A stretch of 60,662 bases of DNA, counting the filler, from Platydemus manokwari (Eukaryota): assembly GCA_037951405.1 (NCBI GenBank). It is 6 parts of 6 records of this genome, joined end to end, with 100 filler letters (N's around TTAATTAATTAA, not from the genome) between each part and the next. Parts side by side here need not be neighbours in the genome. Positions count along the whole stretch, not along the records: positions 32,643 to 42,620 come from JBBMOY011182433.1; 5 more parts are not named here. One strand, written 5' to 3'. The notes beneath the pieces are model-generated. The model saw only the letters and a list, made by a program, of their open reading frames with translations. It had not been told where the DNA came from and searched no databases. A program made the translations under genes and the position numbers. Within the stretch, counting starts at the first letter, position 1; each line of letters begins with the position of its first letter. Below are positions 36,110 to 42,620 of the stretch, piece by piece.

Positions 36110-36797
36110 GTGAAGACCTCGTTATTGGGAGAGTAAGTACAATTGCTATCTAGTATTTTTTATGATGCTATGGTAAGGTGTGCCTTAACAGAGTTATATG
36201 AAATGTGGTATGAGCTAATAACAAAGTAAACCTTACTCCTCTCGGAAAAAACAATATCACAAATAACTCATTTTCTTTTTTCGCCTCCCGTTTGCAATAA
36301 AATGTTTCACTAGGCGATTGGTGTGACTTGGTAATCTAGATGTGTCGTTTACAACGGTGTATTTCCTATTGATTTAATTTCACAATCGAATTGATGCAGT
36401 GATAGCACCTCACTATTCGCTATGCTAATGGGTGGACAGTTCTGATTTCAGCTCGTTATTTATACCTAGCTGTGCCATCTCCCGAACTAATATTTTTGAC
36501 AACATATTCGGGGTTGATGACGGCCTTAACTTGTTCACTTACATATTATAACTTTCTCATTATCATATATATTTGTTGATTTTTGTTCCATTGTAACTCT
36601 TTAATAATTATATTTTATTATTTATTCTATTGTAACTTTTTATAGATATATTTTATTATTTATTCTTTAAATATATTTTTTACATTTTTATCATAGTATT
36701 GTGATTCTTCATAATATTATATATTTTTTTATTACAATTTTATTGTAATTTTGACGTATCATTATTCTTATTTTTATCATTACTAAACTCTGCCAAA
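36110..36797 (-). repeat. Candidate 3' LTR of the env-bearing element
   Basis: Preceded on the minus strand by the purine tract AGGAAACGGAGGGAAAGAA, contains TATAAATA (36464-36457) and ends ...GGTCTTCACA. There is no second copy in the window, so boundaries are tentative. Confidence 0.3.
36427..36464 (-). promoter_or_regulatory. TATA + initiator-like module, copy 3
   Basis: TATAAATA-ACGAGCTGAAATCAGAACTGTCCA-CCCATT has nearly the same spacing (32 vs 31 nt) and the same CAGAACT core as the copies at 37829 and 38712. Confidence 0.5.
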
Positions 36798-37792
36798 TTC
36801 TTTCCCTCCGTTTCCTAACATTATATCATTGACGTGTTTCGTGGTTGCTTGTTTAAATTTCTTATCAGCCCCTGTCTATAATTTATTATGGATCAATTTC
36901 GTCTTGGCCAGTCTCTAAACTCTGATCAACCCACGAATTACACTATGAAATCTTATTCTATATTTTCTGGCCTCGCTGTGAATACTCTATGGAGATTGTA
37001 TGATAGGCAGCAATGATCCTAATACCAAATTTTGCTACAATCAGTCTCAAGTTTAATCGTCCTATACCTATTTTCTATGAAATCATAACTCACAAACCAA
37101 CTAATACCGTTGCTTTTATTGATTATACAAATTAACACTAAATATGTAAATTATTATGTTGCGTTTCGGGCTTGCTAATATAATTTTGTTTAAATCAGTC
37201 TCAATGAAATACTATTATGATTTTGCTCACGGATCACGGCGAGTTCTAATCAAGCCCAAGGTACACCTTAAAACCTTATATTTATTTCTTTTTTTACTTC
37301 GCACTCAAATCTATATGAAGATAGAAATGATTGGCAACAATGATCCAAAAGGGGTAATTTAATCCTATTAGTCTCGATTATTTGATAACTATTTATGCCT
37401 CTATTATCGATCAGCAACGTAACTCCTTCTACAATTAAACGTTTATTAATCTATAAAAGCAAAATTACAGTTTGTTATACTGATATACACCGAAATAAAA
37501 AGTTGGATCAACCGCTAAAAACTACAATTCCAGATGATAGCGGTTAATACGTCCTTCTCTTGGAGTAAAACCAAATACCAAAGATGTTTTTGAGCACAGC
37601 TCTATAATAATATGATGGACGTTACGTACTATAAGTTCAAATCAGTTTGTTACAAAACAATCTAACTCTACTTGAAATGGCAATATGGTATTGGTATGTT
37701 CTGTCGTCGAGCAAATCTTCTAACAATCTTCGAGTAATAAGGCTTAATAGTGGGTTTTCGAACGCACTGTAGTCTAGTGGTTTCGATGAAAT

Positions 37793-37840
37793 AATGGGCG
37801 AGTTCTGGTGTTTCGAACTCCTATTTATGCGGTTTTTATT
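37793..37840 (-). promoter_or_regulatory. AATAAA + TATA-like + hairpin + initiator-like module, copy 1
   Basis: AATAAA-AACCG-CATAAATA-G-GAGTTC-GAAACACCA-GAACTC-G-CCCATT. Confidence 0.5.
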
Positions 37841-37848
37841 CGTCACAC

Positions 37849-38211
37849 TTAAATGCTTAAAATCGCTACTTGATATTTTAATTCCCCGAGGATTTCCCAA
37901 ATATTAACTATTTTCTTTTAACTATAGGATTTTATTGCCAAGGATACTTTTAATATTATTTAAACTCTTTCTTGAATATTATTCCTAAATATTATTTTAT
38001 TATAATTTATCCTTTTGATGCCATTCCAAGTAAACTTCATATAAATTATCTATATATTTTTATAATAATTAATATTTTCATTAGATATTAACCCTTCATC
38101 TGGAATTCATGAACAAAATTTATACAATTGACAACATGACAAATGTATCGAAAAATGATTACTACATCGCTTCAATATTCGGTCTATGTTACTTAAAATA
38201 CATTGATACAT
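37849..38211 (-). pseudogene. Accessory helical ORF, copy 1 (more decayed)
   Basis: Aligns to 38732-39153: MYQCILSNIDRILKRCS...LLGMAS...IVNIWEILGELKYQVAILSI*, with deletions and frameshifts. Confidence 0.5.
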
Positions 38212-38675
38212 TTCAATGTATCAAACCTAACTTTTAGCCGTGATCATAAAAATTGTTACATGATTTTTGTTACATATGTTAGTTGACGCTATTATTATTA
38301 TTATAACTTTTACAACATTCATAAAACTTGGTTTAAATTATTTTTATACATTAATATAAATTACTAAAATTATACATTTATAAACAGCTTAATCACTTTT
38401 AATGGGTTTTGGGCTTGTTAATGGATTTTTTTGTTTTAATCAGTCTCTGTTGAATGTTATTATAATTTTGCTCACGGATCAGAGCTCTATAATAGAATAA
38501 TAAACGATACGTACGATATATTCGGATCAGTTTTTTATACAAAAATCGAACTCACTACTTGAAATGGCAAAATGAAGTATGTTCTGCAGTCGAGCAAATT
38601 CTTCTAACAATCTTCGAGGGATTTGTCTTAATAGTTGCTTCCCAAACGCACTATAGTCTAGTGGTTCCGTAAATT

Positions 38676-39704: not shown

Positions 39705-39797
39705 GACTGCTATTATCAAAATATTATAATTGATGTTAAGGTTAAAATACCGACTTCTTACTTTTGTCGTTGTCAATTGACATTCTTCGTGAAAATT

Positions 39798-39856
39798 ATG
39801 ACTTTTGTCTATTAAGGGGTTCTCTTTATATAAATTTGACGCGTGATTTTGATTGG
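39798..39856 (-). promoter_or_regulatory. CCAAT - TATA - Inr core promoter upstream of the 39704 ORF
   Basis: CCAAT (39856-39852), ACGCGT, TATATAAA (39832-39825), TCAT 31 nt after the TATA start, and an ATG about 95 nt further on. Confidence 0.5.
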
Positions 39857-40226
39857 TCAACCTTGTATGGGTAATTTTCTTATTGGGTGAAATTTTTAAC
39901 ACAGTTTTTCTATTGGTTGATTTATTTTTCTTTATAATTTTATTCGTTGGGAATTTTATAAAAAATTTGATTGCATTAAATTTCCTATCATGCTTTATTT
40001 TATATTTACAGAATTCAGATAACTTATGCAATAAAAGATTATTATTATATTTACATAAATTGAAACCATTAAATGCTTTTCTATACATCAAGTCCTGGTA
40101 TTTACACAAATTGTTTTCATTTATCTCCCTTAAATAATTATTGAATTTAAAATGACTGCTTTTTATCTACATATTAATTTTTTGTTCCCATTGATACTTA
40201 TACTAATTGATATTTTCCTGTAGTTG

Positions 40227-42301
40227 CTATAAGTTGACTTCCCATACTCGAGGGTTGACCCTACAATATTTCCTATACAACTTATAGCTTATGTACATCA
40301 CCATTATGGTGGTCAAACTGGAGATTACTGCTCCTATTATCATCAGGTTTAGGGTAATTTCATTCTGGGGTTTCTTGCTACTCATGGAAATCATACTATT
40401 ATTGATTGTTGTTCTTATGATTTTTGTTGTTATTTTACTAATTGGCTTTATCGTTGTTTTTCTTACAAGGGATTCTCGATGAATTATGAATTTAAGGTTG
40501 CTTTTTTCATAATACTAAAAATTTATATTTACAGGATTTTCAATATTAACATTCCGGGTGATGATTCCTTCTGTAGAGTTTATATTATAACGATGTTCAA
40601 TTAAATGTACTCTAACTTTGAAACAATTCAAATCTTCACAAATGATTTTTATTTGGTCTAACAATTTTTCGATAAATATTTTGCGGGGTAATTCAGGGGT
40701 TTGAACTATCATTGTTATTATATCCTTTCCTTTCTTTATTTCTATTTGGTAAATTATTCCACAATTTAAATTATACATATTTATTGGTTCATTAGCGCTT
40801 TCGTGGACTCTATCATCTGATGTTCGCCATTTTCTCTCGACTTTAACTTGAAATTCTTTCTTAAGCTGTGCTGTAAATCATTTTATTTTCCTATCCTTAT
40901 ACTTATTGTTTAATATCATTATTCGTCCATATTTACTGTAGATTTTAAATTCCTCTTTTCCTATGCTATTAAAAGTGAACATCATCATTGGACTGTCACA
41001 AGTTTGATCGCAAGGCAAAACTATCATTGCTGTAACTATAGTTGCCATTCTAGGGATTCTTCTCCTATATATTATTGGAGTTGTAGTATCATTATTCCTC
41101 CTTTTATTTCCATACATTATTATCAACGCTGCCATTATTGCGATAAATGTTATAATTATACTGGTTATTAGTGATGCATTTAAATTCCTAAAGTGTTGTT
41201 CGTATTCTTTAATCATTTTTGTCAACTTTATTCCGTCTTTTATCATTTTATCCCTTTCTATTTTTATTGATTCAAGATCATTTTTCCATTGCATTGCTTT
41301 CCTTTTTATTCTAAGATGTTCTCTTTTTTTCTCTTTTGCTTTCCATTCTGCTACTCTTTGCTTATAGTGTATTATCTCTTTCCACTTCCTGTTTCCTATG
41401 TCACTTTCGTCGTTAATGGTTTTTGTTAATATCCATTTTGGATTTATCAATTTATTCTTACTGGTCGTACAGAATTTAAAACTCTTCACAATTGCATTTC
41501 GATGTGTAAGGGTTTGCATAACACTGCATAAATGTTATATTATGAAGTCCTAATGTCGATAATATGATTGTCTTAGATAGTATGGTGTTGTTTATTTTAA
41601 TTTCTTTTTCTTCATTTATTGCCATTTTTGCTACTGTTCCCATTAATGATATTAGATGACATGTTAACTTTTTAGTGTATGGCTTCCATGATATTCCTAT
41701 TATTTCCTTTTTTGCTTTGGGCGCTTTAAATTTCCACTCATTTTTTTCTGGCTTAATTTCTTTTAGGATTGCTCTTAAATGTCCTACTACTTCTATTGTT
41801 TTTTGTTTACTGCTTATTGACTGTATCATTATATAAAAATTGACTCTCCTTTCTTGGTTTATCAACTCTTCCCATTTCCCTATTATTGTTATATCCTGTA
41901 ATTTTTCTACTTTACATTTTTCACCATATCCTTGGCTACATTTTACTACCAATTCTATTCTATTTGACTCATTCTTAACCTGTATTTGACCTATATCCCT
42001 TAATTTTCTCCAATTACATTGTTGTTGACAACTTATTATTGCTCTATTATTTTCTACTGTTATGATGTATGGCAAAATGAACTCTACTCGTTTCACATAC
42101 TGTTTTTTTACTCTCTTTTGTCATTATTGATGATGGTGTATTTTCAATATTCCCTATTATGGTGGTATTTTCCATTATGATTGGTAATGTGGTTTTGTGG
42201 TTCCTTACTTCACTAATTAGTTCAAAATTATTGGTTTCATTAGCCTTATTAAGACTTTTAACTGGTCTAATCATTAGGCTAATTATTAGAGAAATTATCA
42301 T
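40227..42301 (-). pseudogene. Env-like multi-transmembrane polyprotein, frameshifted (ORFs 42047-42301, 41476-42096, 40878-41519, 40515-40778 and an unlisted tail)
   Basis: In order: signal-like IISLIISLMIRPVKS, a Cys-containing ectodomain with N-x-S/T sites, a coiled coil, TM SIIITFIAIMAALIIMYG, a basic loop, a second signal MATIVTAMIVLPC, a second ectodomain, a Thr-rich stalk, TM LMIIGAVISSLTTIMVMYISY and a short tail. It lies directly after integrase on the same strand. Confidence 0.75.
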
Positions 42302-42620
42302 TATCTCCTATTCTGTTTATTGATTTCATTATACTTCCTTGTTTTATTTCATCTTTTTTGTCATATTGATATTTAAAATGTATTTTTTAGTTTGAGTTGG
42401 TTGTTTTCCTAATGTTTCTTTTCTAGTTATAGGCTGTTCTTCGGCTTTTTTTACATCTATTTACATGTACTACTGACGGATCTTCATTCTTTTTCTTTTT
42501 TATGAACAAGTTTGTATCTGTTACTTTCACTACCTCATAGGGTCCTTTATACTGTTGGAGTTTTGATTCTTTTATTATTTAGATATGTGAGTTCTGTATG
42601 CTACCGGTTGAATCGCAATG

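Follow-up and report, generated by a model that had tools for sequence, protein, structure and literature searches.

Among Ty3/Gypsy retrotransposons (Metaviridae) with long terminal repeats (LTRs), the bdelloid elements Vesta and TelKA carry, past the integrase, a separate open reading frame (ORF) with transmembrane (TM) segments, cysteines and a coiled coil, and such TM-bearing third frames (ORF3s) are not to be called env (envelope) unless traced to a virus (PMC5408684). Errantiviruses with an env of the F type or of the herpes simplex virus glycoprotein B (gB) type combine a gag-pol-env order with a signal peptide and a TM anchor, and for Nematoda, Bryozoa and Platyhelminthes only gB-type env, in gag-env-pol order, is reported (PMC13524379). 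The planarian elements Burro/GYPSM1, about 30 kb in length, contain MATH, BIR, BCL2 and ankyrin domains. They are Gypsy-like, come from an AT-rich animal host, and encode a 4,873-aa polyprotein in which an env-like sequence is fused in frame, with gag before it and pol after it; LTR retrotransposons with additional ORFs past env have also been described (PMC6431247). Plant elements with tandem, multiple or swapped LTRs contain several LTR-type units each, and LTR regions are exchanged during reverse transcription (PMC11899658, PMC4079214, PMC1950507, PMC4728375); Sirevirus LTRs have U3 palindromes upstream of a conserved TATA box (PMC4728375). An internal promoter and 3' accessory genes occur in foamy and foamy-like endogenous retroviruses (ERVs), and these accessory ORFs are under purifying selection, with dN/dS mostly 0.1-0.3 (PMC5210030), while gene23 of the maize element Grande has its own promoter inside the element (PMC7264820). 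Here we describe a locus of Platydemus manokwari, on a stretch of 60,662 nucleotides made of contigs joined with N gaps (assembly GCA_037951405.1; the whole stretch is called the window), that is likely the 3' end of a decayed Gypsy-type LTR retroelement. An earlier note had taken the 3.4 kb before its polypurine tract (PPT) for a row of separately promoted accessory genes; on balance, these 3.4 kb probably consist of units of promoter plus ATG-free leader, that is, of stacked former LTRs, and not of accessory protein genes.

The element lies entirely on the 10-kb contig at 32643-42620 (JBBMOY011182433.1) with all its parts on the minus strand, in the order integrase GPY tail, ORF3, 3.4 kb of modules, PPT and a 687-bp LTR. 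The features to which we refer are as follows.

42423-42620, minus strand: C-terminal tail of the integrase with the GPY motif and one in-frame stop, truncated by the contig end (Pfam PF22938, translation)
40227-42301, minus strand: ORF3, ~690 codons, env-like by position and by topology, with signal, ectodomain, coiled coil and TM, then probably another signal, ectodomain, T/S stalk and TM (translation, hydropathy)
39802-39916, minus strand: promoter A, three CCAAT boxes with TATA 39832 and initiator (Inr) 39802 (motif scan)
39311-39704, minus strand: candidate ORF A, 55 codons from ATG 39704, both remaining frames having open stretches as well (translation)
38400-39315, minus strand: unit 1 (U1), with AT-rich start, palindromes, TATA 38712, start ~38681, 282 ATG-free nt and the shared 3' end module (BLASTN, alignment)
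38866-39153, minus strand: candidate ORF B of 95 aa, located 5' of the TATA box of U1 (translation, shuffles)
37157-38399, minus strand: unit 2 (U2), the U1 homologue, with TATA 37829, start ~37798 and 642 ATG-free nt up to CAACA (BLASTN, alignment)
36827-37110, minus strand: incomplete third copy, corresponding to the 3' part of the units, after U2 (BLASTN, alignment)
36798-36816, minus strand: PPT, followed by 2 nt and TG (purine-run scan)
36109-36795, minus strand: terminal LTR (L), 687 bp, with TG start 36795, AT-rich U3, TATA 36464, start ~36433, ATTAAA 36378 and CA end 36109 (motifs, folding, depth)
18111-18523, plus strand: older, dispersed copy limited to the 3' part of the units, on a different contig and not embedded in an element (BLASTN E 9e-17, local alignment)

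The order of these parts, the common core promoter, the depletion of ATG, the duplication, and the PPT with its LTR ends can be read directly from the DNA. Within 121 kb, the core promoter, TATAAATA..CAGAACT..CCCATTA, is present only in U1, U2 and L (3 occurrences, against 4e-6 expected for a pattern chosen post hoc, after inspection of the data). Promoter A (CCAAT at 39916/39886/39856, spacing 30 bp) is the sole CCAAT triple among the 171 CCAAT motifs on both strands of the window. Judged by this sole triple and by a core common to two internal units and the LTR, the predicted promoters of the region exceed chance, and the ATG content behind them indicates that the start sites of U1, U2 and L are meaningful. 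On the minus strand no ATG is found in the 282 nt behind the U1 start, none in the 642 nt behind that of U2, and one in the 325 nt behind that of L. Of all 64 trimers ATG is the most depleted behind the starts (1 against 22.3 expected, z -4.5; the next trimer stands at -2.5), and no such depletion is seen in the sequence preceding the TATA boxes or on the opposite strand behind the starts. At 38023-37087 the minus strand goes longer without an ATG than either strand does anywhere else in the window.

The two units are a duplication (38477-39217 against 37592-38277; BLASTN, 73% identity, E 5e-119) with 136 differing columns of 669 aligned (~20%), and 355 bp of U2 are missing from U1. Neutral drift of 10% per unit would create ~5.9 ATGs; since neither unit has any, we infer that AUG avoidance was kept up while U1 and U2 diverged. 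The decay of this particular copy, estimated from two stops in ORF3, is ~2% (range 0.2-6.6%). The duplicate of the last two units described in the earlier note thus exists, except that its helical ORF is broken in the copy; the 355-bp stretch, the partial copy at 37110-36827, the dispersion of a further copy to 18111-18523 and the shortage of ATG had gone unmentioned there.

Because ATG is nearly absent behind the three shared starts, these starts head no sense-strand protein genes. The proposal that, as in complex retroviruses, a tight row of protein-coding accessory genes is transcribed from promoters of their own is supported in part: the Gypsy-like element, the TM-encoding ORF past the integrase, the long 3' region and real-looking Pol II promoters are all present. 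Protein genes behind those promoters are not supported: besides the deficit of ATG there is no coding constraint, and the core promoter is the terminal LTR's own. Only 2 ATG ORFs of at least 40 aa lie in 40200-36110, none of them behind the U1, U2 or L starts. What speaks for such an array is, first, the strong promoter A, followed by ATG 39704 in good context; the motifs and the ATG are as earlier described, but an ORF of 55 codons arises in 41% of 1000 shuffles. Second, the TATA box, helical ORF and AATAAA noted before are found in ORF B, which is preceded by a TATA-like box at 39243 and has AATAAA 38870 overlapping its stop; its 95 codons are reached by chance in 17/1000 shuffles, and its first 58 residues align in one frame with U2 (50% identity, one stop). 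The start of ORF B, however, lies inside a palindrome perfectly kept in U2, where the frame is broken, and one other genomic contig has 68 letters of ORF B replaced by 18. The ratio of nonsynonymous to synonymous changes (pN/pS) is 0.77 in the ORF B frame and 0.51-2.40 over 36 frame tests (6 module pairs, 6 frames), the indels are mostly non-triplet, and no coding constraint was detected in the duplicates in any of the six frames. In the region of ORF A, a sister contig differs at 27 positions and by 1 gap over 315 bp, and among the 10 differences listed third positions account for 2, 3 or 5 by frame. For ORF A and ORF B the search covered Pfam and the window, with no significant match in Pfam.

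We therefore regard this proposal as very unlikely for the region as a whole; it would survive only for ORF A and ORF B, as unproven candidates. ORF A may be broken or spurious, and that ORF B is a real gene embedded in a U3 is possible, if doubtful. Two further candidates were rejected: an extended frame opening at ATG 40088 passes through promoter A and seems to be a by-product of A-rich sequence, and antisense genes (short peptides looked shared on the plus strand) found no support in the six-frame pN/pS values and the non-triplet indels. The likeness to foamy-like ERVs and to Grande consists in promoter-like sites near and after the env-like gene, seen at the level of sequence; in contrast to the accessory ORFs of those elements, no purifying selection is detectable here, and most promoters (three of the four starts) have no ORF behind them (PMC5210030, PMC7264820).

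The anatomy of the units is what one would expect of LTRs, with an AT-rich U3 containing palindromes, a TATA box and Inr, and a long R/U5 ending in CA. Since the R/U5 of the 5' LTR forms the gag leader, AUG is excluded from this part of an LTR. As U1 and U2 are 20% apart while the copy itself has decayed by ~2%, they are likely LTRs of different subfamilies. They would have served as LTRs in those subfamilies and been joined later, by template switching or recombination during reverse transcription or by insertion; in a small sub-lineage, the role of functional 3' end would then have passed to a related LTR (L) with its PPT. The internal promoters would be left over from this history, with short non-coding RNAs (ncRNAs) perhaps still being transcribed from them; ORF B could be no more than a gene embedded in a U3, and ORF A would be specific to one subfamily. 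The arrangement differs from that of plant tandem LTRs: those share LTRs between internal regions, whereas here diverged units are stacked without an internal region, upstream of the PPT (PMC11899658).

Several elements of the units are conserved between U1 and U2, among them the palindromes, a pair of inverted 15-bp motifs ~370 bp apart around each promoter (38556/38939 and 37669/38032), and a GGGAAATCC site ~68 bp upstream of both unit TATA boxes (38780 and 37898, minus strand), which we take to resemble an NF-kB site. The earlier note had seen a TATA/Inr with a structured module; the promoter is confirmed, but folding just behind the unit TATA boxes is unremarkable (z -0.4 at 38680-38561 and +1.5 at 37780-37661), and where z does fall below -2.5, the folding windows span palindromes that precede or surround the promoters. 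Each unit end has a TTAAA-like hexamer ~35 nt before the CA, then a T/GT-rich stretch. A motif reading TCAGTC on the opposite strand past a T-rich run recurs at 38447, 37202, 37048 and 36915 (minus) and at 18449 and 18474 (plus); it is initiator-like or 3' splice site-like and could possibly mark an antisense start or an acceptor.

At the 3' end, the PPT is the only G-rich pure purine run of at least 11 nt (1 of 3 runs) on the minus strand in 40226-35900, and the U3 of L holds a strong hairpin palindrome. Contig depth falls from 395 in the bin 35973-36305 to 23 in the bin 35640-35972 and is near single copy past L. The PPT, the TG..CA ends, the TATA box, the ATTAAA and the drop in depth together support a 687-bp 3' LTR, and the PPT and the TG..CA ends bear out the LTR that had been proposed here. 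A PPT directly before a TG..CA 3' LTR with TATA box and poly(A) signal is the arrangement of Ty3/Gypsy elements. A single giant 4-kb LTR beginning at 40171 was considered and is ruled out by the PPT at 36816, as none fits upstream. The flank past L (33900-36100, minus strand) is single-copy, A-rich and decayed but coding-like, with a T-rich stalk and a strong TM segment near 35946-35800, helical-looking open stretches to ~34300, and a weak Pfam match to TMEM154 (E 0.008); it is perhaps a fragment of an older retroelement.

Abundance was gauged from one public run, of whose 4,305,408 contigs 2475 were aligned; the matches listed comprise 40 of 640 differences, 15 of 95 joints and 8 of 2737 pieces. 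Summed contig depth relative to the single-copy flank, which is not a copy number, was 142 for the integrase tail, ~81 for ORF3 (contigs of at least 80% identity), 3-5 for region A (promoter A ~5x, ORF A ~3x, hence rare among the genomic copies), 26 and 50 for the palindrome blocks, 94 and 86 for the promoters of the units, 387 for their 3' module, of which the very abundant part within U2 is 37433-37157, and 10-31 for L. By these depths the modules are abundant genomic repeats, and the gradient, with the two unit promoters taken together (86+94), is as expected of LTRs plus solo copies; the gradient, the low depth near the junction of U1 and U2 and the dispersed copy would fit stacked LTR-type units. 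Of the 40 listed differences, the 14 that lie within the blocks aligned between U1 and U2 were tested, and at 12 of them the letter of the other genomic copies is present in the other unit, as expected if U1 and U2 belong to one repeat family. The same alignments bear on a further possibility, a stack peculiar to this locus, made of independent solo LTRs or fragments of abundant families nested in an old element, or of a mis-assembly across repeats. Depth along the stretch is uneven (40 to 5628), with no spanning contig among the matches listed, and both ORF A and the junction of U1 and U2 are near single-copy (depth only 51 at 38278-38285), as such a stack would have it; random nesting, however, does not predict a single orientation, a core promoter in common with L or repeats in register, and for region A at least one sister copy exists. 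We consider a stack of this kind quite improbable.

Several points weigh against stacked former LTRs. The element is a single decayed, incomplete copy: the contig ends at 42620, so that the 5' LTR and the remainder of pol fall outside it. The public run shares 76% of sampled words with the stretch and may be the window's own source, and the depths are subject to the limit given with them. Outside the core promoter, L aligns to U1 and U2 at shuffle level (z -0.2 and 0.5). There is no PPT before U1, where a pyrimidine run is found instead, so that U1 is not the element's own plain 3' LTR. No convincing target-site duplication (TSD) was found around the units, the one 4-bp match (37433/37157) arising easily by chance in AT-rich DNA, and the dispersed copy at 18111-18523 is partial and likewise lacks a TSD. 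An R of ~640 nt would be unusually long. Finally, the depths of U1 and U2 each match that of ORF3, which also fits modules internal to the whole family. As to the short module, a TSD-flanked solo LTR was tried and rejected: the dispersed copy runs past the supposed ends with no TSD. The flanks of this copy do not align to the units, and adjoining it is a decayed protein-like stretch (17650-18060, minus strand).

Such family-wide internal modules are the core of another reading, in which U1 and U2 would be Pol II units derived from LTR promoters and making capped, polyadenylated, AUG-free ncRNAs of ~280-640 nt (regulators, decoys or small-RNA precursors), in addition to ORF A and ORF B proteins. 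It would account for the match in depth with ORF3 (26-94x against 81x), for an AUG avoidance that survived 20% divergence, for the poly(A)-like TTAAA-type hexamer and T/GT-rich stretch at the unit ends, for an intact PPT before L alone, and for the conservation of palindromes, inverted 15-bp pair and GGGAAATCC site. It leaves the purge of AUG unexplained: we know of no reason for an ncRNA to lose every AUG, whereas an LTR leader has one. Nor did a scan of 9978 bases against Rfam return more than 1 match (E 0.2, below the gathering threshold), folding behind the starts is not marked, the 3' module is far commoner than ORF3 and has a dispersed copy besides, and L, which would be the LTR here too, is rarer than ORF3. 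Searches confined to an open-access collection of papers found no description of Gypsy ncRNA genes run from internal promoters. We hold this reading to be unlikely, and give a similarly low probability to its boldest form, a Gypsy lineage that would join a new two-part class of membrane glycoprotein to family-wide, LTR-derived internal promoters making AUG-free ncRNAs and to one or two small regulator proteins.

Upstream of the modules, the integrase tail reported earlier was recovered at 42620-42423. Its match to PF22938 (Integrase_p58_C; E 8.9e-4, 19.7 bits) is under the curated cut-off of 27, and with that reserve a C-terminal GPY/F module stands as the last pol domain, as in Ty3/Gypsy elements; in a homologue search with its 46-aa piece, 0 of 1 candidates was confirmed. 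ORF3 begins 122 nt past the integrase stop. The ~2-kb multi-TM polyprotein of the earlier note corresponds to it and does have TM-like segments, but the frame is broken: it is spread over three frames (changes near 42075 and 41500), with in-frame stops at 40878-40880 and 40515-40517. Three segments exceed 1.6 in hydropathy, one N-terminal and signal-like, the other two TM-like, the first TM coming after a long charged helical stretch or coiled coil and the second after a T/S-rich stalk. A fourth, weaker hydrophobic stretch past the first TM is, in our reading by eye, a probable second signal peptide, in which case the precursor would yield two type I membrane proteins.

One relative of ORF3 was found among 1.84 billion proteins (59% identity over 78 aa, E 5e-20), a singleton cluster on a 710-bp ENA contig. 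Because of this relative and the pile-up of contigs at ORF3, we judge it likely to be a genuine gene. Other searches were negative: 0 of 2240 candidates were confirmed in the protein homologue search with the C-terminal part, and 0 of 17 stretches in viral contigs for the middle part, for which 1 of 55 stretches matched among metagenome contigs, a chance match to a bacterial contig. Single-sequence folds were unusable (predicted local distance difference test, pLDDT, 34.5 and 33.5), and one fold search gave nothing at E<=0.001. No kinship with F-type or gB-type envelopes was found in Pfam, PDB sequences, protein searches or the Atlas, where the best score was 0.77, with no usable match after it; with no such link, env can serve only as a positional and structural label for ORF3, which may represent a third type of envelope-like cargo, in addition to F and gB.

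Of the described elements, errantiviruses share with this one a compatible gene order and a third ORF past pol with signal peptide and TM anchor, but ORF3 has no sequence match to F or gB (PMC13524379). Vesta and TelKA differ in that ORF3 here has an apparent two-protein signal/TM layout over its ~690 codons and is followed by the 3.4 kb of promoter modules (PMC5408684). The comparison with Burro drawn in the earlier note does not hold, because the env of Burro lies between gag and pol in frame, in one polyprotein, and ORF3 lies past the integrase stop; the accompanying premise of at most one env between pol and the 3' LTR is too strict as well, given the extra ORFs known downstream of env (PMC6431247).

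Elsewhere in the window, exons of DHX9/RNA helicase A lie on another contig (25013-29067; best identity 65%, top matches to molluscs, flatworms and insects). Two open frames on the minus strand, 6566-7162 and 5630-5950, resemble, on visual inspection, portions of a nuclear receptor ligand-binding domain, an assignment that is ours, and had no significant Pfam match. Another dispersed repeat family, 64-82% alike, is represented at 45748-46206, 54824-55132 and 225-302, and no tRNA genes were found in the whole window.

ORF3 is the more durable novelty of the locus: a gene for an apparent membrane protein, abundant and conserved, past the integrase, with one relative in 1.84 billion proteins. If the 3.4 kb are indeed stacked former LTRs, the locus would be a legible record of LTR turnover, in which older promoter units were left inside the element once a new LTR took over and are still marked by their AUG-free leaders, and it would caution against calling rows of TATA boxes with short ORFs gene arrays. 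Should the bolder reading be true instead, this would be a Gypsy element running its own ncRNA genes from internal promoters, whose retrovirus-like complexity would come from RNA genes and not from protein genes.

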